The notes below the pieces were generated by a model. It was not told where the DNA came from and searched no databases. It saw nothing but the letters and a program-made list of their open reading frames with translations. Positions 1 through 19,131 of a stretch of 20,000 nucleotides of DNA are shown in pieces. Origin of the DNA: an uncultured Myxococcia bacterium (GTDB lineage Bacteria; CAZTWC01); the NCBI GenBank assembly GCA_964617105.1, contig CAZTWC010000001.1:57938-77937 (forward strand), in the 5' to 3' direction. Position 1 is the stretch's first letter. Each line of letters opens with the position of its first letter. Both the position numbers and the translations under genes were made by a program.

Positions 1-3000
1 ATTTATCATAGAGTTGCAGAAGCTCAGAACCCAAAAGGTGCAGACTCCAGCCATCACCGATTATATGGTGCACAGCAATCAGCCAATAGTATTGGTCGTC
101 TTGGGCGCAGATCATCTGCATCTTGAAAAGCGGCCAGGTTTCCGGATCAAATATCTTCTTTTTCAAGTTAATAAAATACTGTTCAATTATTTCCATTTGT
201 TGTTCAGAAGAATTTCCAGCCATCTGGGGCCGTAAATCAATAAACGGCAAAATCTGGTCTGAATCAATACTCTCCATAGCGATAATTTTTTGTTTGGTTT
301 TTACCCCTTCTTTAACAAATATTGCCCTCAGCATGGAATGGCGATCAAGCAACCTGGATAGAACCTGCATAAAGAGTGGCCTATCAATTTTGCCTTTAAC
401 CGGTATAATGGCACACCATTTAGGGCAACTATCGGGCTTTAGCCTTTGGGAGAGGAGGAATCCCGCCTGGGAAGGGGTCAAATCAAAACTCTCCTCGGGG
501 TGATGTGCCGGGGGCTCGATTTGAGCCTGATTCTCTATAGATGATTCTTCTCCACTCTCTTTCTGCCGAGCCAAAAACTCCAGATGTTCTGCCAAAGCAG
601 CAATAGTTCTCTTATTATATAATGTTATGGGACGCGGCAGTACAGGAACCTGCCCCCGCAAACGCTGCAACATATCCAGGGCTAAAATGGAATCACCACC
701 CAGGGAGAAAAAATCTTCCTGATCATCTATCTGGGCCAACCCCAGAAGGTCCTGCCAAATAGCCATCAGTTTCTCTCTAAATGATCGATTTACCCCAGAA
801 CTTTTCTGAATTACCGAGGCTATAAATTGCTTGACTAAAGAGTGCCGGTCAATTTTTTGGGCTCCGGTCAAAGGAATTTCCGAGACCACCTGGAGGCGGT
901 GGGGGATCATAAAGTCGGGCAGCTGTTTTTGCAAAAAATTCAACAGGTTTTCCGCCAAATCCAGGCCGGAGTCCGGGGAAACCGGCTCTACAAAAGCCAC
1001 CAGCCATTGCCGCTTTCCATCCCGATATTCAAGCACCGCTGCTGACCTCACCTGGGCATTAGAGAGCAAGGTGGCCTCTATTTCGCTCAACTCAACCCGG
1101 TTGCCACGAATCTTTACCTGATCATCATTGCGCCCTAAAAAAATCAGGTCGCCTTTGGGGTTCGCTTTGGCCAGATCACCGGTTTTGTATAACCTGCCCT
1201 CAATTCCCGGCACTGAAACAAAAGCGGTTTTGGTCAATTGTTCGTCGGCCAAATAACCGCTGGCCAGACTCTCTCCCCCCACATAGATCTCCCCAATCTC
1301 TCCCGGCGAGCAGAGAACTCCATCTGGATTGATTAAATAGATTTTCGAACCCAGCCTGGCCTTGCCAATAGGAACCTGGGTCTCATTATCCCGGGGAGGT
1401 CCTTTTACCTCGTACCAAATGGCATTGACCACGGTTTCAGTTGAACCGTACAAATTGGCAATCCGGTGACTGAAACCAAAGCGATCGAGCCAGCGCCGTA
1501 TTTGTTCTGCCAGTACCTGTTCTCCGCCGATAAGGACCCAACGCAAATGATCCAGGTTTACTTTCCTCTGCTGGCTATTCAAAATATCAACATAGTCAAG
1601 CAGGCTCATCAACAAAGTAGGCACTGAATTCCAGATGGTGATCCGGTTTTGTTCTAAAAAGTTGACCAACCGGTCAGGATCTCGAGTAATATCTTTACCC
1701 ACCGGGTAAACTGTGGCTCCGGCTAACAGAGGTGAAAATATCTGCCGGATGGAACCGCCGAAACTGATGGAAGAGGTCTGGATAAACCTGTCCTGGGCGG
1801 TGATAGAAAAAGCCTGCTGCACCCAATCGTGAAAAATTGAGGCAGCCCGGTGGCTGACCAGGACACATTTGGGCTTGCCCGTGGTGCCAGAGGTGTACAT
1901 GCCATAGGCAATATCTTCCGGAGATACCCGGGGTAAATCGCTCAAATCTTCTGTGGGATAAATATCCAACACCTGGGACCAGGTTAGCAGGGGCTGGTCA
2001 ATACTGTCGGGTTGTTCCAGACCGTCATTATCCAGCAGTATTATCTGAGTTATCTGGGTATCCTGGTACAGAGAGGCCATCCGGGTCAATTGACGACCCT
2101 GGGTCAAAACCACTTTGACCTCAGAATGGGAGACCATATTGACTATCCTTTGGTCTGGATATTCCGGGTCTATGGGAGTATAGGTGGCGCCGCTGGCCAA
2201 GATAGCCAAAATCCCCACAATAGCCTCCACCCCGGGACTGGCCAGAATCCCTACCATATCTTTGGGTTTGACACCCTGATCTATCAAAGCCTGAGCCAGG
2301 CTTTTGGCCCGTTTTCCCAACTCCTCATAACTAATAGTTTCCTGGGCAGTTACAACGGCCGTATCTTCTGGAATCTGCCCGATTTTATCAAAAATACGTT
2401 GGTGAATCACCTCTCCGGAAGAGAGTTGCTCGGGTTGAGTCTCCAGAGAAGGTTGAAGGGTGGACTGGGATGATAAAAACCGGCCATAGTCACCGATAGA
2501 ACCCTGGCCCCTGGACTGGATAATCTTTTTCAAAAGATCCTGGTGCTGCCTGGCCAACTGCTGAATAGTCGTTTTTTTAAACAGCGATTCGGTATAATTC
2601 CAGGAGAAGTGTAAACATCCGGAGAACTCCCAGCCGATAAGACCCAATTGGGTAAACCCGGAGGCAGAACCTCCGCGCATAGATTCCACCTTCAGAGAAC
2701 CGAAATTGGAAGCAGAAGGAAAATCTGGCCAACTAAGACCGGCAGGAGTAACACCGCGCGGGCCTTGAGATTTACGATCTCCATAAATACCGGCGATCTC
2801 CAGAGAGGAAGTAAGAGGAAAACGCTGGGCCCTGGTAATCTCCTGCTTAACCAACTGAAACAGATCTGGCAGGGTTATATCTTTTTCCAGTTTGATCCGC
2901 ACCGGAAGAGAATCGGCAAAAGATCCCACCACCCTGGTAATATCGGTCACTCTGGCTTCGCGGCGAGCATTGGCCACCCTGATCACAATATCCTTTTCCC

Positions 3001-5137
3001 CAGACAATTTGTTTAGCAACAGGAGATAACTGGCAAAAATCAGATGCAAAGAGGAGATACCCATCTGGCTAGTCAAAAGAGCCAGGGCGGCTGAAGTCTC
3101 TTTATCCAAAATTTGCAGATGGATACTACAGGGACCGGTAGGCTCGGCTAAGGGATCAGAATCAAAAGGAAGCGCCAGAGCTCCCGGCGGATTCTGCAAA
3201 ACCTCTTTCCAGTACTGGCGGCTCCTTTCACCATCCTGACTGCGGGCCGAATTCTCGATAGCCGCCGCACAACTGGTAAAATTGCTCTGCAAAGCCGGTA
3301 AAAGATGGTTGCGCCCCTGCTCAAAGCGGCGGTGGATCTCCAAAAGTTCACTCACCATTATTTGGGCGCTCCAGGCATCGGCGACAATATGGTGAATATT
3401 GAACATCAGGCAATATTGGTTGGGGGCCAGGCGGCATAAAATAATCCGGTAAAGAGGCCCCTTTTCCAGGTCAAATACTCTATTTAAAACCTGCGTCTCC
3501 AGGTTATCTAAAAATTGATTTTGCTCTGCACTATCTTTAGTGCACAGATCCAGACTCTCTATTTCTGGAACGGAAAAACCGCCCTTTCGCTGAATTAACT
3601 CTCCCTGTTCCCACAAAAATATATTCTGCAAAACCTGGTGACGTTGAAAGAGTTGTTCATTGGCCTGCTCCAAATTTTCCAGAGATATGGCGCCGGTTAT
3701 TTGGATCCGCATAAAGACATAGCAGGGCATATGGGGATAAAAAGATTGGTTGGCAAAAAAAGTTTTCTGCGCGGGCAACAGGGGCAAGGGGATCTCTTTA
3801 ACCGGAGATTCCTGGGCCAATTCATTTAAATAGGCTGTCAGTTTTGATACCGTGTCATACTCGAAAAGCAAGGTATTATCCAAAGTTACCCCAAGTTCTT
3901 TTTCCAACTCTTTCACCATATCAACCGCGGTAAGCGAATTTATTCCCAGGTTGAACAGGGGGACATCAGCATCGATTTGATCTGGCGTCAGGTCTAAAGC
4001 ATCGGCCAGCATCTGGCGCACCAGATCCTCTATGCTGCCTGAGGAGATCAATTTATCCTTTTGGACCGCCAACTCACCGGAACTGGTATCTACAACCAGC
4101 TCTGAAGTTTTTTTAACCAATGGCGGTGAGAGAGCCGGAGAGGAAAAGGTGGAGCCCTCAGTGGATACTGCAGGAGATGAGGGTGGACCAACAGTGGAAA
4201 TGATATCATCCTGCAGGAAAGATGAAGCAGGATCTTCCTTAAGGTCTCGGGGATCCAGGGCCAGGCTCAGCCAATGACCGCTGGCCAAAGCCAGAGGCAA
4301 ACACTGAACTGCATCCTGGGGCAATAAAGGATGAATATTAAAAATCTCTTTCACTTTACTCTCATCCATGGTGGCGATCATGCCTACCTTTTGCCACAGA
4401 GACCAGGCCAGGGAGAACCAGGGTTTTCCCTGGCTTTTTTTCCGGCCGGCAAAGATGTTCAAAAAAGCATTGGCTGCCCCATAGTCGGCCATCCCCTTTG
4501 AAAACCTGGCAGATAATTGAGTAAAGGCGCCTGAAATGGAAGATATCAAGAGCACGAAACCATAATCTCTATTGGTAAGGGCTGCCTCCAGGTTCAAAGT
4601 TCCCAACACTTTTGGCTTAATAACCTTCTCTATTTCTGAAAGATCTTTTTTCAGCAAAGATCCGGCAGAGATAAGGCCTGCGCCCTGAAAAACACCCTGA
4701 ATTTTGCCATACTTTTGAAAAAGTTTAGCTATCAGTCCCTGTAAAGCCTGAAAATCGAGAATATCTACTTGAAAATACTCTGGCTGGGCACCCAGTTTCT
4801 GCAACTCTTCTAAATTGGCTCCCATCTCTTCTGCTGATCGCCGTCCAGTGAGGATAAGCACCGGATTATCAACCTGGCGGGCCAGATATTTGGCCAGGTA
4901 AAAACCGACTCCGCCGCTGCCGCCGAGAATCAGATATACTGACTTGGGAGAGGTTTGAAAAAAGTCACTCTGCCCAGTTCCAATTGGTAAAGATGTAACA
5001 ACCGGTGTCAGATTACCGCTGTCCCTAATTGCTGCCGGTGCAAAAGAACGATTTTTTAGGCCTTCCTTTATCTGAACAGCCGCTTTTTCCAGTTGCAACT
5101 CTTCCCAGTTCACCTCCAGGTCGATCACCTGGCCGGT
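1..5137 (-). CDS. Hybrid PKS-NRPS megasynthase, downstream part (KR-ACP-C-A-PCP-C...), running off the left edge; not in the ORF track
   Basis: Manual minus-strand translation from 5137 gives no stop down to the edge, and the ORF track lists no closed ORF in this frame. KR: GGSGGVG (4924-4904), PKV, SS, YGAAN. ACP: LGINSL (Ser 3937-3935). C1: HHIVADAWS (from 3394). A: YTSGTTGKPK (~1897), NLYGSTE, YKTGDL, GRNDDQVKIRGNRVELSEIE, PLTGAQKIDR. PCP: FFSLGGDSI (Ser 691-689). C2: LTPSQ, RHSMLRAIF, HHIIGDGWS (HHIIGDG 70-50). Confidence 0.95.
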
Positions 5138-5247
5138 NNNNNNNNNNNNNNNNNNNNNNNNNNNNNNNNNNNNNNNNNNNNNNNNNNNNNNNNNNNNNNN
5201 NNNNNNNNNNNNNNNNNNNNNNNNNNNNNNNNNNNNNCCTGGCCGGT
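5128..5247. repeat. 10-bp direct repeat CCTGGCCGGT on both sides of the assembly gap
   Basis: Identical CCTGGCCGGT at 5128-5137 and 5238-5247, each abutting the N run. Confidence 0.9.
5138..5237. other. Scaffold gap (100 N) within the KR structural subdomain of the megasynthase
   Basis: Exactly 100 N, a typical placeholder length. The apparent frame change and the stop at 5125 in the ORF track follow from the arbitrary gap size. Confidence 0.97.
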
Positions 5248-8200
5248 GATACAACTATTGGCAGTGACAATATGCAGCGGCGCCTTTAGTTGGGCTGATA
5301 TAACCCCTTTTAAAAATGAGCGCAGCCGGGAAATATCCTCCGTCAACTGGGAATAATCCTGATCTGAAGAGGAAAATTTCATGGGCCCAAAATTGCCCAG
5401 ATAAATAACTCCCGCAATTTTCAATGGGCCCAGAGAGCTTATTAACCATCTGAAATGATCACTGTTTTTCGGATCCAGAATAAAAGTATACTCTGAATCA
5501 CGAATAAAGGCATCGCCCTGAAACAGGGCAAAAACCTCTCTATGAGGATGGCCATCCCCTTTTATCTGATGGGCCAATACCTGGGCGAGACCCTGCTGAT
5601 CTGCCATAATTAGCCAGGCCCCCTCTGAAAAAGAGCCTGAAGATGATTCTGGTGCTGCTTGCCACTCTATCTGGTGCAGTAAACTCTGGATCCGCTCCTC
5701 TCCTGATGGAGATTTCTGAGTACTCAAAAATTCCTGGCCGCCAATCTGGATGCCCTCCCCTTGAGCCTCTTCTGCCAACATTAAGTCCTCATCCTGTAAA
5801 AATTCGGTTTTATACTGACGACCCAAAAAAGGGATTGAAGGGATTGAAAAAGAGTTTATGGGTTGGGAAGGTAAAATCGGGGTCCAGTTCAGGTTGAAGC
5901 CCTGGGTCCACAAACTGCCCAGCACGCTTAAAAATTGCTTAAGTTGCTCCGCCTGAACCTTTGCCTCCCTGACCGCTGGCTCCTCTTGAGCAGAGGACCC
6001 GGGTGCCCGGCTTAGAAAAAAACTTCTATTTCTATCTTTGCCTGATAACAGGGATCTGCACAGAGAGGTTAAGGTGATCCCCGGTCCAATCTCTAAAAAA
6101 ATATCCGCTTTTTCCTGGGTTAGCCGGGAAAAGGCCTGGGTAAATTGAACTGGTTTACTAATATGGCGGCACCAGTAAGTTTGATTCAATTCATCTTGAC
6201 TGCACAGCTCCGCCTTAACCGTGCTCACCAAAGGGGTTTGTAAAGAACCAATTCCCTCCACCTGCTGCAAAAACCGGTCAAAATCCTCCAGCATGGGCTC
6301 CATAAGCGGCGAATGGAAAGCATGGGAAACTTCCAGTTTTTTATACCTTATCTTTTGCTGGGATAAAAGTTGGGCTATCTGGGCCAACTCTTTTTCACCT
6401 CCTGATAGTACCAATTGGTTGGCTGAGTTATAAGCGGCAATAGAGACCCGCTGGCTAAAAGGCTCTACTATAGGCGACAATTGATCGTGGTTGGCAAAAA
6501 CCGCCATCATCTGACCCGCTTCTGGGAGATCCTGCATCAATTGGCCCCGTTTTTCAGCGATCTTCATGGCAGTTTTGGCATCCAGGGCTCCACCTACTGC
6601 GGCTGCGGAAATCTCCCCCACACTATGTCCCAAAACATAGGCTGGTTTAATGCCCAACTCTATAAGCATCTGGGCCATGGCCACCTGGAAAGCCACCAAA
6701 AGAGGTTGGGAGATGGAAGTCTGCTTGATCTGTTGGGCAATAGCATCCAGATTGATACAACTGTCTAAGAGAGTATCTTGCAGATGGCTATAACCGCATA
6801 GTTGTTGAAAATATTGGTTAAAAGAGGGTAAATATTTAAAAAAACCGCTCCCCTGGCCGAGAAACTGGGCTCCCTGGCCGGGAAACAGAAATGCCACCCT
6901 CAATACCCGTCTTTGGTCAACTCCATCTCCGCATATCCACTGGTAATTGGCGGCTGAACCAGGAGTCTGACGGCTGACCGCCACAGAAGATGAACAGTCC
7001 TTCCGCTCAGATTCCTGGTCAAGGACGCCAGCCAACTGTTTCAGCGATTCAGATATATCCTCTTGTTCACAAACTGCCTCCAGGGGGAGCGCAGTACGCT
7101 GGCTGAATCCGGTTCGTCCTTTCGCCATTTGGGAACATAGATCCTCTATGGAAATAGGGATATCCTGTTCAGCCATGGATTGAGCGTAACCCTGCAAATG
7201 TTCCCGATCAGGAGCGCTCAAAGTAAATAAATGGTAAGGCCAACTTGAGATTGCCGGTTTTAAGGTCCGAACCGGGGCCTCTTCCAGCACCAGATGGCAG
7301 TTGGTTCCGCCAAAGCCAAAAGAGTTGATTCCCGCTCTCAACGGTGCGCTGCCTCTCCATTTTTCCAAATCGGTCTGAATCCGTAAGGGAGTTTTAAGAT
7401 CCTTTAGTTGAAAATCCTCTACTGAACAGTGAAGCGACGGGGGCAAAATCTGGTGCTTCAGGCAAAGCAGCATCTTTATAAAACTGGCTACTCCCGCTGC
7501 TCCCAATAGATGGCCTATATTTGATTTAACCGAGCCGATGGGAATGCTGTTTTGTGGCTGACCCGAAAAAAACTTGCTCAGCGAACGCAGTTCTATAGGA
7601 TCTCCCAGCGGAGTTCCGGTTCCATGGGCCTCAATAGCGCTAATAGTAGCAGGATCAATATTTGAATTGGCATAGGCTTTCTCCAGCACTGCCACCTGTC
7701 CCGGAAGATGGGGGGCCATTGCTCCTACCGAGCGGCCATCGTTATTGATGGCACTGCCCTTGATTACTCCCCAGATATGATCACCTTCGGCCAGCGCCCG
7801 GCTCAGAGGCTTCAACAACACCAGACCAGCGCCCTCTCCTGGCACAAAGCCATCGGCCTTTCGGGAAAAGGGGCGGCTTTTACCAGTTTTGGAAAGCGCA
7901 CCCGCCTGGCCAAAATAGCGGTGGGCCACCGGGGTCAAATTTAGATTAATCCCCCCCGCAATAGCCAAATCACACTCTCTGGTCAATAGGCTCTGAATCG
8001 CCAGGTGAATAGTCACCATCGAGGAAGAGCAAGCTGTATCAATGGCCATGGATGGGCCGGTAATATTGAGTTCATGGGAGAGCCTAGATGCCAGCATGTT
8101 TAACAGATTATCAACTAAAAGCAGAGGATGAAGAGAGGGGGTGGAGGAGATCCGTTCCATCTCCTGTTTAAATTGCTGCCTGGTATCTTGATCAAGGGAG

Positions 8201-10479
8201 TTGAAAATACTGCTTTTGGCCAATCGAGCAAAAGCCTCTTGACGATGCAAGGGAGTGGTTAACAACTCCTGGTAAGGGACCTGGTTAGAGCCAATATACA
8301 CACCTATAGATTGATTTTGGCGCCGCTTTTCTCCGTGAAAACTGGTCTCCAGCAACTCCAGCCCCAACTCCAGCAAAACTCGCTGCTGCGGGTCCATCAC
8401 CCGGGCTTCTTCAACATCAACGGAGAAGAAACTGTTATCAAAAGAGTAAGGATCAGTCAAGAAACTACCCCATTTACAATCCAGTTGATCTATGGTGCCA
8501 TCCGAAAATCTCCCCTTAGGGATATCCTCTATCAGATCAGCCCCACTGGCGAGATTGTTCCAGAAATCTTCGGGAGTAGAGGCTTGTGGAAAACGACAGG
8601 CAACTCCAATAACCGCTATATCTACTGTTTCAGTATACCTGGTATCCTCTTTTTTCATCGATTCGATCTTTGCTCTCTTTTTAATGATAAAAGTCTCAGC
8701 ATCTTTTGCATCTCTCTGGGAGGGGAAATGGTCTGGCAATATACTTTTATTGTTTTGGCTGTCCAAATATTTTTTAGCCAGCACATAGCGGCGAATTTTG
8801 CCGCTAGAGGTTCTGGGGATCTTTCTATTGTCAATCAAAAACACCTGTTGGATGGTGATGCCCAACTCCCCTTGCAGCCGCCTTTTCACCTTAAAGGGCA
8901 ATTGAACATGATCTACCCCTTCTGGTTCGGGACAGATAAACACCAAAATCTCCTCGCCATCTATCTCTCCGGCCTGGGCAGTGGAGCAGGCTACCGACAG
9001 ATGGACCCCCTCTACCCTATTGGCCACCTCTTCCAGGTCTTGAGGAAAAACATTGCGGCCGGCAAAATTGATCATCTCTTTGATCCGGCCGCAGATAGCC
9101 AACCTTCCCTCTTTGATAAAACCTATATCACCGGTTCGCAACCAGCCATTGTACCTGGTCTGTAAAGTGGCATTAGCATCCTGAAAATAGCCGGCAGATA
9201 TATTTGGCCCTTTAACCAGAATCTCTCCAGTTCCATCTCCAACCACATCTCTATTCTCCTGATCAACTATTTTTACCTGGCAGCCATCCAAAAGGGGACC
9301 CACGCTAACTACCTGGATCTCCTCTTCTTCTGCCCCATTAATTTCATCACCGGCAACCTGATCCGCCTGGTGCTTTGACACTGCCTCTTCTGTAACCTCA
9401 ATTACCTCTCCCCTTCTTTGCAGCGGTTCTTTTAACAAACTATGGTAATGAAACCCTTTTCCCCGGGCCGCAAAAGATACTCCCACCGAGGCTTCTGCCA
9501 ATCCATAACAGGGCAAAATAGCCTGGCGCCGAAAACCAACAGCGCTAAAGCGTTGGCTAAATTTTTTTAAAACCTTTAGGTTAATTACCTCCGCTCCCAC
9601 CACAAAAATTTCTACAAAACTCAAATCCCAATTATTATGGTCAATATCCTTTATCTGGTTGACAATATAGTGCAAAGCAGTATTGGTGACCGACAGCATG
9701 GTGGCTCGATTTTGGGAGGCCAAATTAAGCCAGTTTTGCGGATTTCTCAAAAACTGGGCCGGGGTCATTTTGATTTGACGGCAGTTGCTGTAAAGAGGAA
9801 GCAGGTGGCAGCCTACCATGCCCAAATCGTGATAGTGGGGGATCCAACTCAACTCCACATCCTTCTCATCCATATTGGACCTGGTCTGCATCTGATGCAG
9901 GTTGGCCAGGATATTCTCCTGACTTAACAAAACCCCTTTAGGTGCGCTGGTGCTGCCCGAGGAGTATTGGATCAGGGCCGGATCCTGAGGTTTAACCTCC
10001 TGATTAAAGAATAGTTGACTGCTCTCTTTTAGAGACTCCAGATAGATAAACTGTTGCTCAAGCCCCTTAATTGGCGGGATATCCTGGGAGATTATAACTT
10101 TGGGACCTTCTAATTTTTCCCAGACATTTATTAGTTTACGCTGGAGGTCCACTTTGCCGGGACCAATAGGGGCAGGTAAGGGCACCGGGATAAACCCGCC
10201 ACATTGACAGGCCCAAAAGGCGGGATAAAAATCAGCCGGCCTCTCAAAAACCAGGGGTAAAGGCGAGCCTGGTTTAACCCCGGCATCCAATAGTCCGGCG
10301 GCAATTCTCTGAGCCTGGTCAAAGAGGCTGGCCAGAGTTTGCTCAACCAAATTACCATTTTGGTTCCAATAGAGTATGTTGCCGGCCTGGCCAATCTTAT
10401 CAGCATCGGCGGCACGGGCCTTTAACATCTGGGACAGGGAGTTAAACTGGTCCATAATTGATCTATCTTTCATTTGCAA
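5238..10479 (-). CDS. Hybrid PKS-NRPS megasynthase, N-terminal part: fatty acyl-AMP ligase-like (FAAL/MycA-type) - KS - AT (malonyl-type) - start of KR
   Basis: FAAL: QYSSGSTSAPKG, SWIPHYHDLGMVG, YGLAEA followed by an insertion, WLRTGDIG, PRTSSGKIRR. KS: DIAVIGVACRFP, MDPQQR, DTACSSS (Cys ~8030), EAHGTGT, KSNIGHL, GINSFGFGGTNCHLVLEEAP. AT: FPGQGAQ, GHSVG (6630-6616), HAFH (6324-6313). No DH motif before the KR structural part (HQIEW...WLIMAD). The start may be TTG 10479 or ATG 10473. Confidence 0.95.
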
Positions 10480-10495: not shown

Positions 10496-11317
10496 TTAAC
10501 TTTTTAAGTTCAATAAATGGCGGCGGTTCACTCGCTCAGTGTCCATGGCCGAGAGGATTGAATTTTTAATACCTGGATATTTTTGATGCAGATTCTCCAG
10601 CAGGGTTTTTAACATTTTTCTCTTGAGATCACCCTGGCTATAGGGACAACCGCAAGACTGCACCGGAATTTTTGTTTTATAGGCAAATTTTACGATCAGC
10701 TCCTCTGGCACATAAACCAGGGGCCGAATAACTCGTCCTTTGCCATCATCACAGAGCAAATTGGCCGACATCCCCTTGATTTGGCCAATAAAAAACAGGT
10801 TTAACAGCAGAGTTTCCACAAAATCATCCATATGATGCCCCAGAGCCAACTTGTTGAATCCCCGTTTCCAGGCAAAATCGTAAAGAACTCCGCGCCTGAC
10901 TCTGGAGCATAGAGAGCAGGGGCAATCCCCGGGTTGAAGCGCCTGGATGATGATCTCATTGATACCGCCATCGCCAGCTGGAATAATATGAAAAGGGATA
11001 TCTATCCGGGCCATATAATTGACCAGCCGCTCCCGGTCAAACTCTTCAAATTTATTATCAACATAGGCTGCCTCCAGATGATACTTAACCGGCGCTTTCA
11101 CCTGCAGCCGCCGCAAAACATGAAGCATGGTCAGAGAATCCTTGCCCCCGGAAACCGCCACCAAAATCTTATCACCATCAGCAGTCAGTTGAAAATCTCC
11201 AATAGCCTGCCCCACCTTTTTGACAATTTTCCGCCCACTTCCGCGGGTCAATTCCTGTTGTATTAAAGCCGGTGTATGCATAGACGCCATCCTATCTTTA
11301 ATGTGATTGGTTGGCAA
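10496..11317 (-). CDS. ttcA: tRNA 2-thiocytidine(32) synthetase TtcA (PP-loop ATPase, Fe-S)
   Basis: SGGKDS PP-loop, CPCSLCSRVRRG, ALGHHMDDFVETLLLNLF, VIRPL and a C-terminal CGC. The true start may be ATG at 11290. Confidence 0.88.
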   Translation of the reverse strand: MPTNHIKDRMASMHTPALIQQELTRGSGRKIVKKVGQAIGDFQLTADGDKILVAVSGGKDSLTMLHVLRRLQVKAPVKYHLEAAYVDNKFEEFDRERLVNYMARIDIPFHIIPAGDGGINEIIIQALQPGDCPCSLCSRVRRGVLYDFAWKRGFNKLALGHHMDDFVETLLLNLFFIGQIKGMSANLLCDDGKGRVIRPLVYVPEELIVKFAYKTKIPVQSCGCPYSQGDLKRKMLKTLLENLHQKYPGIKNSILSAMDTERVNRRHLLNLKS

Positions 11318-11638: not shown

Positions 11639-12268
11639 ATGTTAACCAAATTAGTGATGAATTTTGTTTTAATCGGGGCCGAATGGGTTTTGTGGCTCCT
11701 GTTTATCCTTAGTTTCCTCTCCATTGCCATTGTTATCGAGAGAGCGATCTTTTTTGTCCAGCGAACCCTGGGGGTCAAGACCATTAGAGATAAAATAGTG
11801 CCTCTGCTTAAGGAGCATAAGTTTGACCAGGTGCTGGTTATTGCTAAAAGTAAATCCACCACTGAAGGTAATATTATTGCCGCGGGAATCAAGTCCAGCA
11901 TGACGGAAAACCCCGGGGCGGTAGAGCGCCGGATGAGCGGAACCATGGCCCTGGAACAGGAAAAACTGGAGCGCTGGCTCTCCTTTTTGGGTACCCTGGG
12001 CAACAATGCCCCCTTTATTGGACTATTTGGCACAGTGCTGGGGATTATCAAAGCTTTTCATGATCTGTCTATGGACACCCAGGGCGGAGCCAGTGTGGTG
12101 ATGACGGGAATATCGGAAGCCCTGGTGGCCACAGCGGTGGGGCTGTTTGTAGCTATCCCGGCGGTGGTGACTTTTAATATATTCCAGCGGGCCATTGCCC
12201 GAAAAATGGCCAACAGTGAAGCTTTGGCCGAAGCCTTGCTGGCCGCCCTCAAAGGAAATAAACAGTAA
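11639..12268 (+). CDS. exbB: ExbB/TolQ (MotA/TolQ/ExbB proton channel family)
   Basis: LGTLGNNAPFIGLFGTVLGIIKAF and GISEALVATAVGLFVAIPA motifs, three hydrophobic segments, context with exbD/tonB/TBDR. Confidence 0.92.
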   Translation: MLTKLVMNFVLIGAEWVLWLLFILSFLSIAIVIERAIFFVQRTLGVKTIRDKIVPLLKEHKFDQVLVIAKSKSTTEGNIIAAGIKSSMTENPGAVERRMSGTMALEQEKLERWLSFLGTLGNNAPFIGLFGTVLGIIKAFHDLSMDTQGGASVVMTGISEALVATAVGLFVAIPAVVTFNIFQRAIARKMANSEALAEALLAALKGNKQ

Positions 12269-12744
12269 TGCAACGGTTTAGAAAATTAAAAAATAATAAT
12301 CTAATCACTGATATCAATATCACTCCTCTGGTGGATATCACCCTGGTTTTGCTGATTATCTTTATGGTGACCGCCACTTATATCGCCCGCCTGGCTATCC
12401 CACTAGAGTTGCCCAAAGCCGGGTCTGCGGAGCAGATGGAGGATAGTTTATTGGCGGTCACCCTGGGCCAGGAAAACAAACTCTATCTTAACGGCCAGGA
12501 AGCCCGGGATAGAGATCTGGAACAGGCGGTGGAAAATTTTCAAAAAGATAACAAAAAGATCCGGGTGCTCATATCAGCCGATCGGCGGGTGAGTTTTGAG
12601 CGGTTTGTTAATGTTCTTGACCGGTTACAAATTTTAGGCGTTATACATCATGCCATAAATACCGTCCCCTTTGACCAGGATGAGTTGATTGAAGATGATA
12701 ACCAGAACAGGGATTCCAAAGAGGATAACAAGGTGAAAGAGTGA
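12268..12744 (+). CDS. exbD: ExbD/TolR biopolymer transport protein
   Basis: DINITPLVDITLVLLIIFMV signature with the TM Asp, LELPKA, ISADRRV. TAATG overlap with exbB. Confidence 0.92.
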   Translation: MQRFRKLKNNNLITDINITPLVDITLVLLIIFMVTATYIARLAIPLELPKAGSAEQMEDSLLAVTLGQENKLYLNGQEARDRDLEQAVENFQKDNKKIRVLISADRRVSFERFVNVLDRLQILGVIHHAINTVPFDQDELIEDDNQNRDSKEDNKVKE

Positions 12745-13556
12745 AGAGAGGACGCTGGCCCCTATCCTTTGTTGGCTCTTTGCTGTTGCACCTGGCATTT
12801 GTGGTGATTATGCTTTTCTTGCCCAGAGCAGAGATAAAAAGCAACCATAAAATGGCGGTGATGGTGGTAAAAAAAGATCTGCGCCCCAAAAAAGAACCGC
12901 CGAAAAAAAAGAAACCCGATAAAAAACCGGAACCACCCAAAAAGATAGAGCCGAAAAAAAAGAAAAGGCCTCCCAGGGTAAAATCTCCCAAAAAGATGGA
13001 GAAAAAGGAGCCGGAAAAACCGGTGAAGCCCAAAGAGCTGACTCCCCAGCAGAAACCAAAACCCAAAAAGCCTTTGCCCATCATCCCCAACTTTGGTTTG
13101 AAAATGGAGGCTGCTACTGCGGCCGGCGGTTCAGTGTCGGTGGCGGTTTCAGGCGGCACCACCGTGGCTGATCCAAAAATCGAGGGCAACAGCAACAAGC
13201 CACGAGCCATAAAGGGGGAGCCCAAACAGCCAGTGGCCCAGGACTCTTTGGATGAGGATGGAGTTCCCTCCGCCACCATGCACCAGGTAAAAAAGCAGGC
13301 CCGGGTAATCCAGCGGGTGATGCCAGATTATCCGGAAAAACTGCGCCGGCTGGAAATCGAGGGGAAGGTGAAACTGGAATTGCGCATCGATGAAAAGGGA
13401 GTGGTTACCCATATCAAGGTTTTGAAAAGCCTGCACACTTTGGCTGACCAGGAAGCCATCAAGGCGGCCCGCAAGATGAAGTTCTCCCCAGCCACAGTGG
13501 ATGGCCGGGCAGTGGCAATCAAAATACCCTACACCTTTACATTTGTATTAGAGTAA
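12741..13556 (+). CDS. tonB: Energy transducer TonB
   Basis: N-terminal TM with SLLLH, Lys/Pro/Glu-rich spacer (KKEPPKKKKPDKKPEPPKK), C-terminal TonB domain (PDYPEKLRRLEIEGKVKLELRIDEKGVV...FSPA...G). GTGA overlap with exbD. Confidence 0.9.
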   Translation: MKRGRWPLSFVGSLLLHLAFVVIMLFLPRAEIKSNHKMAVMVVKKDLRPKKEPPKKKKPDKKPEPPKKIEPKKKKRPPRVKSPKKMEKKEPEKPVKPKELTPQQKPKPKKPLPIIPNFGLKMEAATAAGGSVSVAVSGGTTVADPKIEGNSNKPRAIKGEPKQPVAQDSLDEDGVPSATMHQVKKQARVIQRVMPDYPEKLRRLEIEGKVKLELRIDEKGVVTHIKVLKSLHTLADQEAIKAARKMKFSPATVDGRAVAIKIPYTFTFVLE

Positions 13557-13584: not shown

Positions 13585-16221
13585 ATGCTGTATTCAATTT
13601 CTCGTGTTTTGACTTTTTGGCTGCTGTTTTCCCTACTGCCCCTCTCCTCTGGATTGGCCTTTGAAGGAGTGCGTCAAGAGGAGGTGAAGGAGCCGCCCAA
13701 GCCCAAACTAACTAAACCACCCAAAATGCTGAAATTTATTGAAGCCGTCTATCCCGCCACTGCCTTGAAAGATAAAACGCAGGCCTCGGTGGAGATGCTG
13801 ATTACTCTTGACAACCAGGGTAATGTTACGGATGTGAAGGTGACCAAACCGGCGGGACTGGGTTTTGACCTGGCTGCCATGGAGGCTATCAAAAAATTTA
13901 AATTCTCTCCAGCAGAGGTGGATGGAAAGCCCTCCCCTATCCAAATCATCTATGTGTATAATTTTATTATCAAAGAGGAGGTGAAAAAACCAGATTTCTC
14001 CCGACCTGGCCTGGGTACGATCTCAGTTAAGGGGCGGGTCCGGGAGGCTGGCACCCGGCTGGGAATCGCCGGCGCCGCAGTTTCAACCGGCAAAACCATG
14101 GTGTCGGTAACTGCCGACAAGAGAGGTTTTTTCCAGATTCGTGGCCTGGCGCCGGGAAAATACCGTCTGCTGGCCTCCAGCCCGGAGCACCAAAAACTGG
14201 ACACCCCCATAGAGGTCAAAGAGGGGATGGAAACCCAGATTGATCTGTATCTACAGCCCCTGGTGGAAAACCCTTACGAAACCGTGGTTCGGGGGGAGCG
14301 CTTCAAACAGGTGGTCACCCGTTACACGGTGCAGCAACGGCAGTTGGTTACAGTACCCGGCACCTTTGGAGATCCCATCCGGGTGGTGCAAAACCTGCCA
14401 GGCTCCTCCCGGGCTCCCGGAATTCTGGGGGTAATGCTGATTAGGGGCTCATCCCCCCAGGATTCCAAAACCTTTATCGATGGGGTGGAGGTGCCGCTGC
14501 TATTTCACTTTTTAGGCGGCCCATCCATTATCAATGCCCAGATACTGGACAAAATCGACTACTATCCAGGTAACTTTTCAGCCCGGTACGGCAACGCTTC
14601 GGCCGGCATTATTGATGTTAAGACTAAAAATACCTCTCCGGAAAGGTGGCGAGGCAGCACCCAAATAGATTTTTTACACTCTGGAGCCTATATTGAAGGG
14701 CCGGTAACCGACAAACTATCCTTTGCCCTGGCGGGAAGGCGCTCCTATATCGACCTGCTCCTCCCCTCGGTGCTGGAAGCCGCAGGCCAGGAATCACTTA
14801 CCGTAGCCCCCTTCTATTGGGATTACCAAATTAAAACCGACTATTCTCTGCCTGGAGATGACCGCTTATCCCTGTTCTCCTTTGCCTCCCACGACAGCCT
14901 GACGGTGGTGGATACCACCGGCTCAGACACCGAAGATTCCTTTTCTTTAAAAACCAGAATCGGCTTTTACCGCACCTATGTAAAGTGGCTGCACAATGTT
15001 TCGGATCAATTTATTTTTACTCTGCAGCCCTTTTACGCTTACTCGCTGTTTCGAATGGAACTCCAGGATATTAACATTGATAACAACCTGCTGGAGTGGG
15101 GAGCACGCAGCGAAGTTGAGTGGATTCCATCTAAGCAGTTCAATCTGACTTTGGGCATGGATGCCAGATATAGCAATCCCAAAATCAAAATGAAAGTCCC
15201 CGCTTTTACCGACACCAAATGGCCTGGCACCTGGACCGACCGGGGCGGCAGCAACTTTTCCGATGAGATGACAACTATTGTCCGAACCATAGACGGTTAT
15301 TTGCTGGCTCCATACCTTACCGCCACTTGGAAGATTTTGGGCAATCTGCAATTGATTCCCGGTTTAAGGGCCAATTATAACTATTACCATAGTGGCGGAA
15401 ACCGCTTTTGTCTGGACCCCCGTCTGGTGATCCGCTGGATACTGGGGCCTGAAACAGTAATCAAAGCGGGGGCTGGCCTATACAGCCAACTACCCGATTT
15501 TCAATATTTTGATGAGCAGTACGGCAATCCGGATATCCCCTTTCAGAGAGCGGAGCAATACGGATTGGGGATAGAGCAAAAACTAACTTCAGTTATCGAC
15601 CTGGACCTGCAGGCTTTTTATATCTATCGCTACGATATCCCCTGGATGTCTGATCAATATCGAGGAGAAGGGGAAAACCGGCGGCGGGAAAGATTTGCTC
15701 CCACGGGCCAGGCTTTTGCCTTTGGCATGGAAGCCATGCTCAAACACCAGGTGACCAGGAGTTTTTACGGTTGGGTGGCCTATACCCTATCTCAATCCAA
15801 GCAAAAAATGAGAGGCGATCTACCCTGGCGGCTGACCACTTTTGATCAGACCCACATCCTCACGGTGGTGGGCAGTTGGAAACCGGTAGCCGGCTGGGAG
15901 ATGGGAATCCGTTTCCGTCTGGTTTCCGGTAACCCCGATACACCAGTCACAAGCAGCACCTTTGATGCTGACACCCAAAACTATAAACAGTTGACTGGCG
16001 GAATATCATCAATTCGAAATCCCCTGTTTAATCAACTGGACTTTCGGATAGAGAAAAGTTGGACCTTCCAGTATTGGGTTTTATCCCTGTACCTGGATAT
16101 TCAAAACGTTTACAATGCTGAAAACCAGGAAGCCACCCGCTGGGACTATCGGTTTAAATATTCTGGGGCTGTACCCGGTCTGCCAATTTTGCCAACTTTG
16201 GGAATCAAGGGGAGTTTTTAG
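13585..16221 (+). CDS. TonB-dependent outer-membrane receptor with N-terminal TonB_C-like and carboxypeptidase-regulatory-like domains
   Basis: Signal peptide; TonB_C-like domain (aa ~40-126); Ig/CarboxypepD-like domain (VKGRVRE...ADKRGFFQIRGLAPGKYRL); plug (PGTFGDPIRVVQNLPG...IRGS...FIDGVEVP...YGNASAGIIDV); barrel features (DPRL, DIQNVYN) and a C-terminal Phe. Confidence 0.9.
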   Translation: MLYSISRVLTFWLLFSLLPLSSGLAFEGVRQEEVKEPPKPKLTKPPKMLKFIEAVYPATALKDKTQASVEMLITLDNQGNVTDVKVTKPAGLGFDLAAMEAIKKFKFSPAEVDGKPSPIQIIYVYNFIIKEEVKKPDFSRPGLGTISVKGRVREAGTRLGIAGAAVSTGKTMVSVTADKRGFFQIRGLAPGKYRLLASSPEHQKLDTPIEVKEGMETQIDLYLQPLVENPYETVVRGERFKQVVTRYTVQQRQLVTVPGTFGDPIRVVQNLPGSSRAPGILGVMLIRGSSPQDSKTFIDGVEVPLLFHFLGGPSIINAQILDKIDYYPGNFSARYGNASAGIIDVKTKNTSPERWRGSTQIDFLHSGAYIEGPVTDKLSFALAGRRSYIDLLLPSVLEAAGQESLTVAPFYWDYQIKTDYSLPGDDRLSLFSFASHDSLTVVDTTGSDTEDSFSLKTRIGFYRTYVKWLHNVSDQFIFTLQPFYAYSLFRMELQDINIDNNLLEWGARSEVEWIPSKQFNLTLGMDARYSNPKIKMKVPAFTDTKWPGTWTDRGGSNFSDEMTTIVRTIDGYLLAPYLTATWKILGNLQLIPGLRANYNYYHSGGNRFCLDPRLVIRWILGPETVIKAGAGLYSQLPDFQYFDEQYGNPDIPFQRAEQYGLGIEQKLTSVIDLDLQAFYIYRYDIPWMSDQYRGEGENRRRERFAPTGQAFAFGMEAMLKHQVTRSFYGWVAYTLSQSKQKMRGDLPWRLTTFDQTHILTVVGSWKPVAGWEMGIRFRLVSGNPDTPVTSSTFDADTQNYKQLTGGISSIRNPLFNQLDFRIEKSWTFQYWVLSLYLDIQNVYNAENQEATRWDYRFKYSGAVPGLPILPTLGIKGSF

Positions 16222-17157
16222 ATGATTTTAGATAGATTTTTCACGGTCATCCTGTTGGGAATAGTGTTTCTGATTTCCGGATGCAATTTGCCCCAATTTG
16301 AGCCGGCTCACCTGGTAAAGGACCGCCGTATCCTGGCAGTACGGGCAGAGCCACCAGAAGTACATCTGAATATCAAACTAAACCAGGGGAAACTCGACCT
16401 TTCCTCCATAAATCTGGATAAGATAGAGATGCCCTCTCTAAGCCTGTTGTTAGTGGAGCCGGCCGGTGCCATCGGTCCGGTCGCCTGGTCTGCTGTTGCC
16501 TGCCCCACCAATCGTGAATTTCGCTGTGATGGGGAGGCCACCAAAATGGAGTTGGGTCAGGGAGAGGATAAACCTGAAGATATCCGGATCAAACTAAAGG
16601 TAAACCAGTCGCTATTGATGGCCTGCGCCAAAGCGGATCCCCTGGCTGTGCTATCGGGCATTGCGGTTCAGGTTTCCATCAAGATCGGAGAGGGAGAGGA
16701 GGCTCTCTACGCCTCCAAGGATGTGGTTTTCGGATACCCTTTTCCAGCCGGCCGCACCCCCAATACCAACCCGGATAGCACTAAACTGCAAGTGGATCAA
16801 CAGGAATGGAAATCCAACATGAAGCCCGTAATAGAACCTGGACAAAAAATGAAGATAGATCCCATGCCCCGGGAAAATTCCCAGGAAGCCTATCAACTGG
16901 CCACTTTTAGCGGTTCCACCGAAAAATTCCAGGAGCGTTTTAAATATATCTTTTATGCTACGGCGGGTAAATTTTCCCCCGCCAAGACCGGTGGCCGCGA
17001 TTTTTTAGAGGAAGATACCCAGGATCCTTTCCACACCTTTTTTGCTATTCCCAAAGAGTATAAAGAATCAGGCCCCATCCGCTTTTGGATGATAATTGAC
17101 GATCAGCGCGGCGGCATTAACTGGCTGGAACGCGAAATTGAGGTGAAACCCAGGTAA
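16222..17157 (+). CDS. Putative lipoprotein partner of the TonB-dependent receptor
   Basis: Hydrophobic signal ending in lipobox ISGC (Cys21). ATG immediately follows the receptor's TAG. RILAVRAEPPE near the N-terminus and DQRGGINW near the C-terminus. Confidence 0.75.
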   Translation: MILDRFFTVILLGIVFLISGCNLPQFEPAHLVKDRRILAVRAEPPEVHLNIKLNQGKLDLSSINLDKIEMPSLSLLLVEPAGAIGPVAWSAVACPTNREFRCDGEATKMELGQGEDKPEDIRIKLKVNQSLLMACAKADPLAVLSGIAVQVSIKIGEGEEALYASKDVVFGYPFPAGRTPNTNPDSTKLQVDQQEWKSNMKPVIEPGQKMKIDPMPRENSQEAYQLATFSGSTEKFQERFKYIFYATAGKFSPAKTGGRDFLEEDTQDPFHTFFAIPKEYKESGPIRFWMIIDDQRGGINWLEREIEVKPR

Positions 17158-17241: not shown

Positions 17242-19131
17242 ATGTTTTTAATGGCCACCACTGCCGGAGCCAATGAGAACGCCACCCTAATCACCATTAT
17301 TAAGGGAGTGCTGGGATCTCCCGGTAATATTCTTAAGGGTTTGATGGTGATCTTCAAACTGATCAAATATATCTTCAATCACAACACCCAGACCGGGTTC
17401 GATTTGGCCGGCTCTTTTGCCAGCCTTTTGACCGGCCTTACCAACTCTTTGATAACCCAGTTGCTCTTCGCCATACCGGCGGTCTCCACCTGGGTAGCAG
17501 AAAAACTGGTGGAAGAAGAGGCGGAAGAGGCTATCCCCTATGTTGGCTGGGCCTTCAAAATTGTAGCCAATGCAGCGGCTGCCGTCGATATGGCTGCCAC
17601 TACTGCTGAGTATTGTGCTCTCCCCTATGTGATTGAAAACACCATCTCCCTGGCCCACCAAGTTACGGTTACCGTGAAAAAAGACCCCCTTGATTCTCAG
17701 TTCCCCAGGGCAGCCACCAGCGTGGTGCTGAGTGTTTATGCCGGTAAAAATCCGGTGACCCTGACCAAGAAACTGACCGATACAGATTTAGCCAAATCCT
17801 CTTTGACCTTTGTGGTAAACGGTGTGCCTGCTACTGCCAAAACAGAAAAAGTGGTGGCGGTCTTTTATGATGATGTAACTGACTCTCCCGGTTTTGGAAT
17901 TACGCTGGGCTATGGAGAAGGAACCATTTTGAACAAAATAGTAGATGGCAAAACTCCCATTACCTCCTTTGAGATTAAAGAGAATCCAGTGCCTATCAAT
18001 GCCAACACCAAATTTGAACACAAGTTCAAATTAACCAAAGCCGATGGCAAATACGCCTGGGATGACAAAGCGGCAAAACCGGTTTATGAAGCCCTGGATA
18101 CCGGCGGCAAAGAGGGTACCCTCAATGAACTGAACAACATTACCCTTTGGGTACCAGGCGGTATGCTGGGATACTCCTGGCGGGCTGCCTCCAAAGGGAT
18201 GAAAGAGTGCGGCGGTGATGGGAGCGGCTCCCTCTATATGTTCAATAATGTAAATACGGTAATGGGCAAAGAGGACATAGGGCAAAAATTTTCGGGCTGC
18301 GGCTTCTCCCACCCTATGGCCATGGCCTATGACATGACCGCCCTGGGCGATCAGGCGGGTGGACGCCACTTCTATCTGGATGCCTACAATACCGATCCAA
18401 AAATACCCCAGTATCATCTGCGGAAAATAACCCTGGATCAAAACAATGACTTAAATGTGTGGAGCCTGAATAAAGAGAAAGATAAATCCTGGGGTATGTT
18501 CACCATGCCCATTAACCGGATGGCTGTTACCCACAACGGCTATGTGATAGGGATCTCCTCCGAATGGCACCGTATCGGTATTCTCAGACTTCCCGAAAAA
18601 GCCCTCTCCATGGATGACTACAAAAACAACGAACCCTTTGTGGCCCGGAGTTTGCTCACTGGAGGTAAAGGGAAAAATAACGATACCCTGCTCCACACCC
18701 CGGTGGCCCTCACCGTGAGCAAAGATAACGATCTGCTCATCCTGGAAGATAGCGGTACTTTTGCGGTTAAAGCGTTCTCCTGCGAAGGTAAGCCCAGAAA
18801 AATCTTCAAAGACAAATCAACTTCAAGACTGGTGTTGTCAAAATCTAAAGAGGATGCCAAAACCACTAACGTTAAGATGCTGGATATCTCTATTGATCGG
18901 GCCGGCCTATTCTTTGTGCTCTCTCAAACCGGTCATGGCACCTCTGCTGCTGACCATCATCTGGATATCTACGATATGGCGGGAAATCATATCAACCGCA
19001 ATAGTGGTATCACTGTGGCCCGCATGGTGGTTGATCCCTTCCGCAATCTTTACTCATTGAACTACGAAAAGATAAAAACCAGTTCAATAGTGGAGCCTTC
19101 GGTAAGTATTTGGCTACCAAGTATTAAGTAG
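17242..19131 (+). CDS. Uncharacterised protein: hydrophobic helical N-terminal region, beta-rich middle, C-terminal NHL-like beta-propeller; possibly 5'-truncated
   Basis: 629-aa ORF. NHL-like blades LLHTPVALTVSKDNDLLILEDSG...VKAFSCEGKP and MLDISIDRAGLFFVL...LDIYDMAG. No evident RBS or signal peptide. Confidence 0.65.
   Translation: MFLMATTAGANENATLITIIKGVLGSPGNILKGLMVIFKLIKYIFNHNTQTGFDLAGSFASLLTGLTNSLITQLLFAIPAVSTWVAEKLVEEEAEEAIPYVGWAFKIVANAAAAVDMAATTAEYCALPYVIENTISLAHQVTVTVKKDPLDSQFPRAATSVVLSVYAGKNPVTLTKKLTDTDLAKSSLTFVVNGVPATAKTEKVVAVFYDDVTDSPGFGITLGYGEGTILNKIVDGKTPITSFEIKENPVPINANTKFEHKFKLTKADGKYAWDDKAAKPVYEALDTGGKEGTLNELNNITLWVPGGMLGYSWRAASKGMKECGGDGSGSLYMFNNVNTVMGKEDIGQKFSGCGFSHPMAMAYDMTALGDQAGGRHFYLDAYNTDPKIPQYHLRKITLDQNNDLNVWSLNKEKDKSWGMFTMPINRMAVTHNGYVIGISSEWHRIGILRLPEKALSMDDYKNNEPFVARSLLTGGKGKNNDTLLHTPVALTVSKDNDLLILEDSGTFAVKAFSCEGKPRKIFKDKSTSRLVLSKSKEDAKTTNVKMLDISIDRAGLFFVLSQTGHGTSAADHHLDIYDMAGNHINRNSGITVARMVVDPFRNLYSLNYEKIKTSSIVEPSVSIWLPSIK

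Follow-up and report, generated by a model that had tools for sequence, protein, structure and literature searches.

The window analysed here, a stretch of 20,000 nucleotides from an uncultured Myxococcia bacterium (assembly GCA_964617105.1, contig CAZTWC010000001.1, positions 57,938 to 77,937), encodes on its minus strand a lipid-forming polyketide synthase (PKS)-nonribosomal peptide synthetase (NRPS) megasynthase whose sole adenylation (A) domain carries glycine, instead of aspartate, at specificity position 235. The whole gene, which extends beyond the window, has the domain order fatty acyl-AMP ligase (FAAL), ketosynthase (KS), acyltransferase (AT), ketoreductase (KR), acyl carrier protein (ACP), condensation domain C1, A domain, peptidyl carrier protein (PCP), condensation domain C2 and a terminal domain (TAD) discussed below. 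The glycine is part of a pocket that is identical in thirteen related sequences, which form a single clade, and the A domain is probably functional with a re-tooled pocket. The interpretation favoured here, for which the chances appear about even, is that this clade of working A domains switched from an acidic alpha-amino acid to an acid that lacks an alpha-amino group, for example malate or 2-hydroxyglutarate, and that C1 would join it by an ester bond.

Specificity pocket of the A domain

The elements of the A domain that matter for the argument, all on the minus strand, are the following:

854 to 2377, minus strand: A domain (Pfam AMP-binding, residues 960-1335, and AMP-binding_C, residues 1391-1467)
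1762-1751, minus strand: A4 motif FGGS (F, 1762-1760; G235, codon GGC, 1759-1757; G236, codon GGT, 1756-1754; S, 1753-1751)
1747-1745, minus strand: Arg at specificity position 239 (codon CGG)
1442-1444, minus strand: Ser in place of the conserved Pro of motif A5 (NLYGSTE)
854-856, minus strand: Lys of motif A10, specificity position 517 (codon AAA)

Positions 1768-1745 of the minus strand read atc agt ttc ggc ggt tcc atc cgg, i.e., I S F G G S I R, and the FGGS motif with its GGC codon is exactly where the first-pass annotation of this DNA had placed it. The other motifs quoted in that annotation (ITIWNSVP, WVLIGGE, NLYGSTETVVNA and GAQKIDR) were all present as well, the A10 Lys lying outside the interval 1410 to 1800 to which the feature had been assigned. 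The domain matched Pfam AMP-binding (E 6e-83) and AMP-binding_C (E 1.8e-09), and scored 382.7 bits against the amino-acid-adenylation model TIGR01733, above its cut-off of 317.4. The core motifs YTSGTTGKPK, NLYGSTE, YKTGDL, GRNDDQVKIRGNRVELSEIE and GAQKIDR were found, followed by the carrier serine in GGDS. Thus, with GrsA-PheA and other A domains for alpha-amino acids it shares the fold family, motifs A1-A10, Lys517 and a following PCP, and it differs from GrsA-PheA in the replacements Asp235 to Gly, Ala236 to Gly and A5 Pro to Ser. It has FGGS where those domains have FDxS.

The match to GrsA (1amu) had an E value of 5e-73, and in phmmer searches against solved structures the first Gly came under the Asp of FDGS or FDIS in both linear gramicidin synthetase A domains. 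The ten-residue code GGRNLGLVNK, which had earlier been read by eye, was obtained by two routes, a MAFFT alignment with motif anchors and a profile hidden Markov model (HMM) alignment. The HMM column mapping reproduced the codes DAFWIGGTFK, DASTVAAVCK and DALTTGEVVK as printed in a review table, and the numbering of the specificity positions is therefore sound. The code contains no acidic residue, and its positions 239, 278 and 331 are occupied by Arg, Asn and Asn.

Concerning the rarity of such a pocket, the background set consisted of 1092 A domains from 243 multimodular NRPS proteins returned by earlier searches. A search of representatives with the A domain only gave, as its best 150 matches ranked by summed scores, giant multi-module NRPSs exclusively, at 31-37% identity; no orthologues were found this way, and these proteins served only as background. 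Position 235 was Asp in 1075 of the 1092 domains, Val in 11 and Gly in 3, while Arg occupied position 239 in 33. The nearest background codes were DARSLGLVNK (three differences) and DARGLGHVNK (four differences), both uncharacterised and both with Asp235 and Arg239. At five differences there were a dozen or so codes, including DAKDLGVVNK and DAQDLGVVNK, which we take to be of the Glu/Gln type, and also hydrophobic ones such as DGFFLGVVFK.

The glycine at 235 is not due to chance. An alternative explanation was a sequencing or assembly error, GGC at 1759-1757 standing for GAC. Contigs from four of four metagenome runs (marine or seawater samples of two studies, the source sample of the window possibly among them) span positions 1751-1762 without a single differing letter, although at a low depth of 3-5, and the same Gly-Gly pair occurs in 12 other sequences from other genomes or metagenomes. 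No RNA run was among the public runs listed. An error can practically be dismissed.

Conservation of the Gly235 pocket among relatives

Orthologues were retrieved with the C-terminal part of the protein. A protein search with C2-TAD gave 336 matches at E ≤ 1e-20; among the best 120 of the 336, 27 proteins covered at least 95% of the query, 22 of them with lengths of 3836-4207 residues and five shorter. They came from Streptomyces, Micromonospora, Actinoplanes, Herpetosiphon and metagenomes, and in the three checked with Pfam (P0160, P0168 and P0174) the domain order was that of the query. A search of longer proteins with the TAD alone returned five proteins, of which only P0153 was an orthologue, truncated before the A4 motif. 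Scanning species-representative genomes with an alignment of five TAD sequences gave 332 relatives, from which 80 loci were kept; 77 of these had a readable upstream A domain, and the other three were incomplete. The resulting table of pocket codes has 106 rows, comprising 77 loci and 28 proteins besides the query, with a few duplicates of one gene (P0168 is the same as locus L015, and P0169 the same as L028):

DARSHGLINK: 62 rows, mainly Actinomycetota
DARSHGLVNK: 15 rows, mainly Actinomycetota
GGRNLGLVNK: 13 rows, the clade of the query
DASRGGHINK: 6 rows, Herpetosiphon and a metagenome-assembled genome (MAG) of Chloroflexia
DARSQGLINK: 4 rows, various
Single-variant codes: 6 rows, including GASRGGHINK (P0167) and the incomplete P0153

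Most relatives, mainly actinomycetes and Herpetosiphon, retain Asp235. The thirteen GGRNLGLVNK rows are the query, loci L005 (Saprospiraceae), L006 (Polyangiaceae) and L024 (a MAG labelled Deltaproteobacteria), and the metagenomic proteins P0159-P0166 and P0179. In a maximum-likelihood tree of 57 A domains, comprising every code not of the DARSHGL type except P0153, 14 of the 80 of the DARSHGL type picked at random and 17 outgroup domains, these thirteen sequences were monophyletic with an SH-aLRT support of 100, and the megasynthase of the window grouped with those of Myxococcota and Bacteroidota MAGs. Within the clade, any two A domains share 35-95% identity (median, 55%); even so, FGGSIRQ, NLYGSTE and the complete ten-residue code are the same in 13 of 13 members. 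The earlier proposal to look for FGGS in homologues thus found it, as FGGSIRQ, in 12 further sequences.

Motifs A2, A3, A5, A6, A7, A8 and A9 and the A10 Lys were likewise intact in all thirteen members. Such invariance of pocket and motifs at 35-95% identity excludes a sequencing error, and it is very unlikely that the domain has decayed. A domain that is dead or purely structural, its PCP being loaded in trans or not at all, might be suspected from the loss of the canonical A4 Asp and from the Pro that replaces the first His of the C1 motif in P0179. However, the ATP-, ribose- and carboxylate-binding motifs and Lys517 are complete in 13 of 13 members, and the ten pocket residues do not vary even at 35-55% overall identity. 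Moreover, no further condensation domain was found in the genome, and hence no second multidomain NRPS, stand-alone adenylating enzymes not having been searched for. This explanation is very improbable, and the degeneration contemplated in the first-pass annotation was not found in any member of the clade.

The loss of Asp235 in the family was not a single event. P0167, with code GASRGGHINK, lies inside the Herpetosiphon-type clade with a support of 100, so Asp235 has been lost at least twice; the same FGAA motif occurs in P0279, which clusters with P0167 and comes from a different contig.

A second change accompanies Gly235. The A5 Pro of NxYGPTE is Ser in 13 of 13 members of the clade and Gly in P0153, while it is kept in the 91 family members that bear Asp235 (91/91) and in P0167. 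In the background set, the A5 Pro was missing from 16 of the 17 domains without Asp235, as compared with 184 of the 1075 with Asp235. The A5 Pro is adjacent to a backbone carbonyl in contact with the alpha-substituent. Since position 235 and the A5 Pro are both changed, this clade has lost the usual form of both elements by which the protein contacts an alpha-amino group.

A third difference concerns C1. Its motif was HHxxxDA in nine of the ten Gly235-clade members examined, P0179 being the one with Pro for the first His, with DA kept; it was HHxxxDG in 16 of 16 Asp235 members and in P0167.

Substrate and bond formed

An arginine at position 239 or 278 is found family-wide, at 239 in the Gly235 clade and in its sisters with DARS-type codes, and at 278 in Herpetosiphon. 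The Herpetosiphon-type code DASRGGHINK resembles DLTKVGHIGK, which is common in the background set and is presumably an Asp code. The arginine, together with a pocket similar to the codes for acidic residues, suggests an anionic substrate. The ancestral substrate of the family would be an acidic alpha-amino acid, and the Gly235 clade would take its nitrogen-free counterpart, most likely an anionic alpha-hydroxy acid such as malate or 2-hydroxyglutarate, whose distal carboxylate Arg239 would hold. The A domain and the PCP are contiguous, with no KR between them, the only KR detected with Pfam being that of the PKS module. A keto acid could therefore neither be reduced in cis nor supply the nucleophile, and an alpha-hydroxy diacid is the best guess. 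As to the steps of the pathway, the FAAL would prime the assembly line and the PKS module would extend the chain once and reduce it, leaving a 3-hydroxyacyl chain on the ACP; C1 would then join this chain to the loaded hydroxy acid by an ester instead of an amide. Release of the product would fall to the C2-TAD pair, and its export to the neighbouring MMPL transporter.

Both condensation domains, judged by their solved relatives, are of ordinary condensation types. The best solved relative of C1 was the C domain of PvdL (E 1e-37), and those of C2 were the condensation domains of bacitracin synthase 3, PvdL, McyB and surfactin (E 1e-30 to 1e-20). The possibility that C2 is an epimerisation domain was rejected, as the GrsA epimerisation domain matched far more weakly (E 6e-08). 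No carrier domain follows C2.

The replacement of Asp235 in A domains for hydroxy, keto and aryl acids, to which the earlier annotation had appealed, agrees with published reviews (PMC11253843, PMC11355689 and PMC13643306). Among alpha-hydroxy-acid domains, as described in one of them, position 235 is natively Gly in EnSynA1 of enniatin synthetase, which uses D-hydroxyisovalerate, and Ala in a TycA engineered for phenyllactate (PMC11253843). By that description, the present domain with its Gly235 shares with them a small neutral residue, but their pockets are hydrophobic, whereas here there are Arg239, Asn278 and Asn331. EnSynA1 is, besides, fungal, whereas this A domain has a PKS module upstream and a C-TAD pair downstream. 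Keto-acid domains of the StsA (cereulide), cryptophycin and dolastatin 15 type have both Asp235 and the A5 Pro replaced, as here. They carry a hydrophobic residue at 235 (PMC11253843) and need a KR in the module, while the present module has Gly235 and no KR. In StsA the A5 Pro is Met, and restoring Pro abolished activity (PMC11253843). Aryl-acid domains of the DhbE/EntE type combine Asn at 235, as reported for DhbE (PMC11253843), with a QQVxFMAEGL-type A5 motif, unlike the Gly235 and NLYGSTE found here. The nearest precedent for a hydroxy-diacid substrate is the fungal polymalate synthetase, an NRPS-like A-T-C protein reported to adenylate malate, tether it and esterify it through its C domain (PMC9210645); that enzyme is a eukaryotic, membrane-anchored polymerase. 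A domains without Asp235 are already known for hydrophobic hydroxy, keto and aryl acids, and the variant described here would fall within this re-tooled, non-amino-acid kind. A conserved Gly-Gly-Arg pocket apparently suited to an anionic nitrogen-free acid, or the codes of this family, were not found in print in searches of open full text, which did not cover supplementary tables.

Several observations weigh against the hydroxy-diacid interpretation. All of the co-variation at the level of the clade goes back to a single evolutionary event or, at most, to two, and the independent Gly235 protein P0167 keeps both the A5 Pro and the HHxxxDG motif of C1; therefore, the three changes do not always occur together. 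The motif HHxxxDA was considered as a signature of ester formation and rejected, since 70 of 1102 background motifs have it and the second Gly235 lineage does not. The seven loci examined share no neighbouring gene for the synthesis of a special acid. Asp235 is not strictly required in every case, given that McyG, with Val at 235, is reported to accept Phe (PMC11253843). Finally, the A5 site is Ser in 15 background domains, 4 of 15 with beta-alanine-like V-D codes and 5 of 15 with Asp235 and Arg239, a pattern that points equally to substrates with the amine off the alpha-carbon.

The same A5 serine is one of the features favouring an alternative that is possible, though somewhat unlikely, namely that the A domain activates either an amino diacid, through the carboxyl of its side chain (iso-Asp or iso-Glu type), or a beta- or gamma-amino acid, with position 235 idle and C1 still forming an amide. 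In such a pocket, Arg239 would bind the free alpha-carboxylate, and Asn278 and Asn331 the amine. The conservation of Arg239 is in agreement with this, and so is the kinship of C1 to PvdL, an enzyme in which a Glu is acylated and then handed on by way of its gamma-carboxyl. Arg at 239 is a feature of the domains characterised for aminoadipate, Glu and methyl-Asp linked through their side chains; three codes of side-chain-activating domains were looked for in the literature and not found. On the other hand, characterised iso-linking domains keep an acidic residue at 235, and the present code has no acidic residue to hold the amine. Moreover, Asp235 and the A5 Pro are both retained in sister clades that have the same Arg, and because of this the changes in the Gly235 clade look like lost recognition of the amine and not like its reorientation. 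The earlier claim that the substrate is probably not an alpha-amino acid thus stands as far as the loss of Asp235 is concerned, which is real, conserved and accompanied by intact catalytic motifs, but an amino diacid activated through its side chain would fit too. Likewise, the role assigned to Arg239 in binding a second anionic group fits its conservation in the clade and the arginine at 239 or 278 across the family, but the side-chain-activated amino diacid accounts for the same features.

Another alternative is that the A domain loads a small alpha-amino acid (Gly, Ala or Ser), whose amine would be held by backbone carbonyls only, Asp235 being dispensable here. The residues L-G-L-V at positions 299-330 resemble those of DILQLGLIWK-type background codes, which we assume to be Gly codes, and P0167 differs from its Asp235 relatives only at position 235; the case of McyG mentioned above is also favourable. 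Nevertheless, Asp235 is present in 1075 of the 1092 background domains, and the invariant G-G-R together with the loss of the A5 Pro in 13 of 13 members speaks for a pocket selected to fit another ligand. This alternative is considered improbable.

Returning to the hydroxy-diacid interpretation, its extension to the whole family is put forward tentatively and is held to be rather unlikely: N-acylation of an acidic amino acid would be the reaction in actinomycetes and Herpetosiphon, while the marine, myxobacterial and Saprospiraceae clade would make a 3-hydroxyacyl depsi-lipid from a hydroxy diacid, with C-TAD release and MMPL export, which would constitute a natural amide-to-ester switch. The Asp235 orthologues of Streptomyces, Micromonospora, Actinoplanes and Herpetosiphon have about 4000-4200 residues and share with the query the pocket Arg and Asn331; they differ in keeping FDAS or FDAA, the A5 Pro and the C1 motif HHxxxDG, and P0168 and P0174 add a loading ACP after the FAAL, as some of the others may also do according to a motif scan.

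Megasynthase, terminal domain and genome context

The minus strand of the window contains one very long reading frame, interrupted only by a run of 100 N, with the order FAAL-KS-AT-[N gap]-KR-ACP-C-A-PCP-C according to Pfam and NCBIfam. Besides the A domain, its features in the direction of the gene are:

8752 to 10479, minus strand: FAAL, at the start of the open reading frame (ORF) (Pfam AMP-binding, residues 47-432; NCBIfam PRK09192, residues 28-576, 323 bits)
7123 to 8622, minus strand: KS (Pfam ketoacyl-synt, Ketoacyl-synt_C and KAsynt_C_assoc, residues 620-1119 of P0002)
6064 to 6891, minus strand: AT (Pfam Acyl_transf_1, residues 1197-1472 of P0002)
5138 to 5237, no strand: run of 100 N, scaffold gap between the AT-KR linker and the KR
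4391 to 4939, minus strand: KR (Pfam KR, residues 106-288 of P0001)
3827 to 4024, minus strand: ACP of the PKS module (Pfam PP-binding, residues 411-476; phosphopantetheine Ser at 3937-3935)
2516 to 3787, minus strand: C1 (Pfam Condensation, residues 490-913; motif HHIVADAWS; catalytic His at 3391-3389)
575 to 772, minus strand: PCP, approximate limits (second PP-binding stretch; Ser of GGDS at 691-689)
1 to 484, minus strand: N-terminal part of C2, leaving the window (motif HHIIGDGWS; the whole of C2 is G000:C1:57372-58421)
G000:C1:55839-57200, beyond the window: TAD, in the same gene

The 100-N gap shifts the frame, and one gene thus seems to be two ORFs; the contig has two 10-N runs elsewhere. 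Since intact orthologues of 4017-4076 residues have the same, unbroken domain order, no domain is missing at the gap. The linker between FAAL and KS (window 8740-8622) has no loading ACP, and by Pfam this protein and P0160 have two carriers only; P0161-P0166 seem to be alike in this, judging by a motif scan. In P0168 and P0174 (Streptomyces/Herpetosiphon orthologues) Pfam shows a third carrier near residues 590-630, and the motif scan gives one in P0167 and P0179 as well.

The C-terminal domain, of about 450 residues, had no Pfam match. It matched PDB entries 9e4x and 9e4s with an E value of about 8e-32, and also the N-terminal part of PigE. Its AlphaFold model, with a mean pLDDT of 84.8, superimposed on 9e4s_B with a Z score of 45.2 and a root-mean-square deviation of 2.3 over 374 residues, as compared with a Z score of 26.8 for the cyanobacterial acyl-ACP reductase 6jzu. 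The catalytic Cys was invariant in five of five aligned sequences. Entries 9e4x and 9e4s are structures of the TAD of CarI (carmabin biosynthesis), for which the main text of a preprint (the TAD preprint) proposes a role in terminal amidation, shows NAD binding beside the invariant Cys and calls the chemistry unresolved; for the related domain of PigE, thioester reduction has been described. By sequence, fold and the invariant Cys, the domain is thus like the CarI TAD, but it does not directly follow the terminal PCP, a complete condensation domain standing between them. Another difference is in the DDSGP loop of CarI, which here is DDSFP in 26 of the 27 sequences checked and DDSMP in P0179. 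Its function in terminal amidation is putative, and the term terminal amidation domain was found in the literature only in the TAD preprint. No mention of a PCP-C-TAD arrangement was found in the main text of the preprint, although its cluster figures S2-S9 may already show the architecture. No product or function assigned to the FAAL-PKS-NRPS-C-TAD family was found in the literature.

In the genome, of 4.07 Mb and 96% complete, only two condensation domains were found, both in the megasynthase gene, and the megasynthase is therefore without an NRPS partner. The TAD query matched in none of the 40 genomes from a search for relatives, all 40 being related at domain level only, and the source organism apparently has no close relative in the species set searched. 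Downstream of the megasynthase there are an MMPL/RND transporter gene, adjacent to it, and an MFS transporter gene. Upstream, a PP-loop gene is followed by ORFs resembling a TonB system, which are divergent from the megasynthase and whose translations were judged by eye:

10496-11317, minus strand: PP-loop ATPase gene, TtcA-like, with Cys-rich motifs, its end 17 bases upstream of the megasynthase start
11639-13556, plus strand: ORFs resembling ExbB, ExbD and TonB
13585-16221, plus strand: 878-residue ORF resembling a TonB-dependent receptor
16222-17157, plus strand: 311-residue ORF
17242-19131, plus strand: 629-residue ORF

The PP-loop gene is probably a housekeeping gene, and it could be co-transcribed with the megasynthase. 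In the seven loci examined, the downstream neighbours differ and no accessory gene is common to the megasynthases; the MMPL gene adjoins the megasynthase here and in the Streptomyces locus L051. Two neighbourhoods within the Gly235 clade can be mentioned. In L024, a gene for an isocitrate/isopropylmalate-type dehydrogenase (L024:9508-10905), a family that acts on 2-hydroxy di- and tricarboxylic acids, overlaps the end of the megasynthase; it was not seen at the other loci examined and may be housekeeping. In L005, a short-chain dehydrogenase gene (L005:11151-11948) overlaps the megasynthase stop, and a split membrane acyltransferase (Acyl_transf_3) lies about 1.8 kb beyond it, after an unassigned 506-residue ORF on the opposite strand.

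The architecture FAAL-PKS-NRPS-C-TAD is widespread, with its 332 loci in species-representative genomes including many of Streptomyces. As sister clades of the same megasynthase keep Asp235, they provide matched natural pairs for studying the switch between amino and non-amino substrates, and possibly also that between amide and ester bonds, which would be useful for engineering. If the amide-to-ester switch were true, it would mean a new class of bacterial lipids, an unprecedented C-TAD release and, among bacterial NRPS A domains, the first for a hydroxy dicarboxylic acid.

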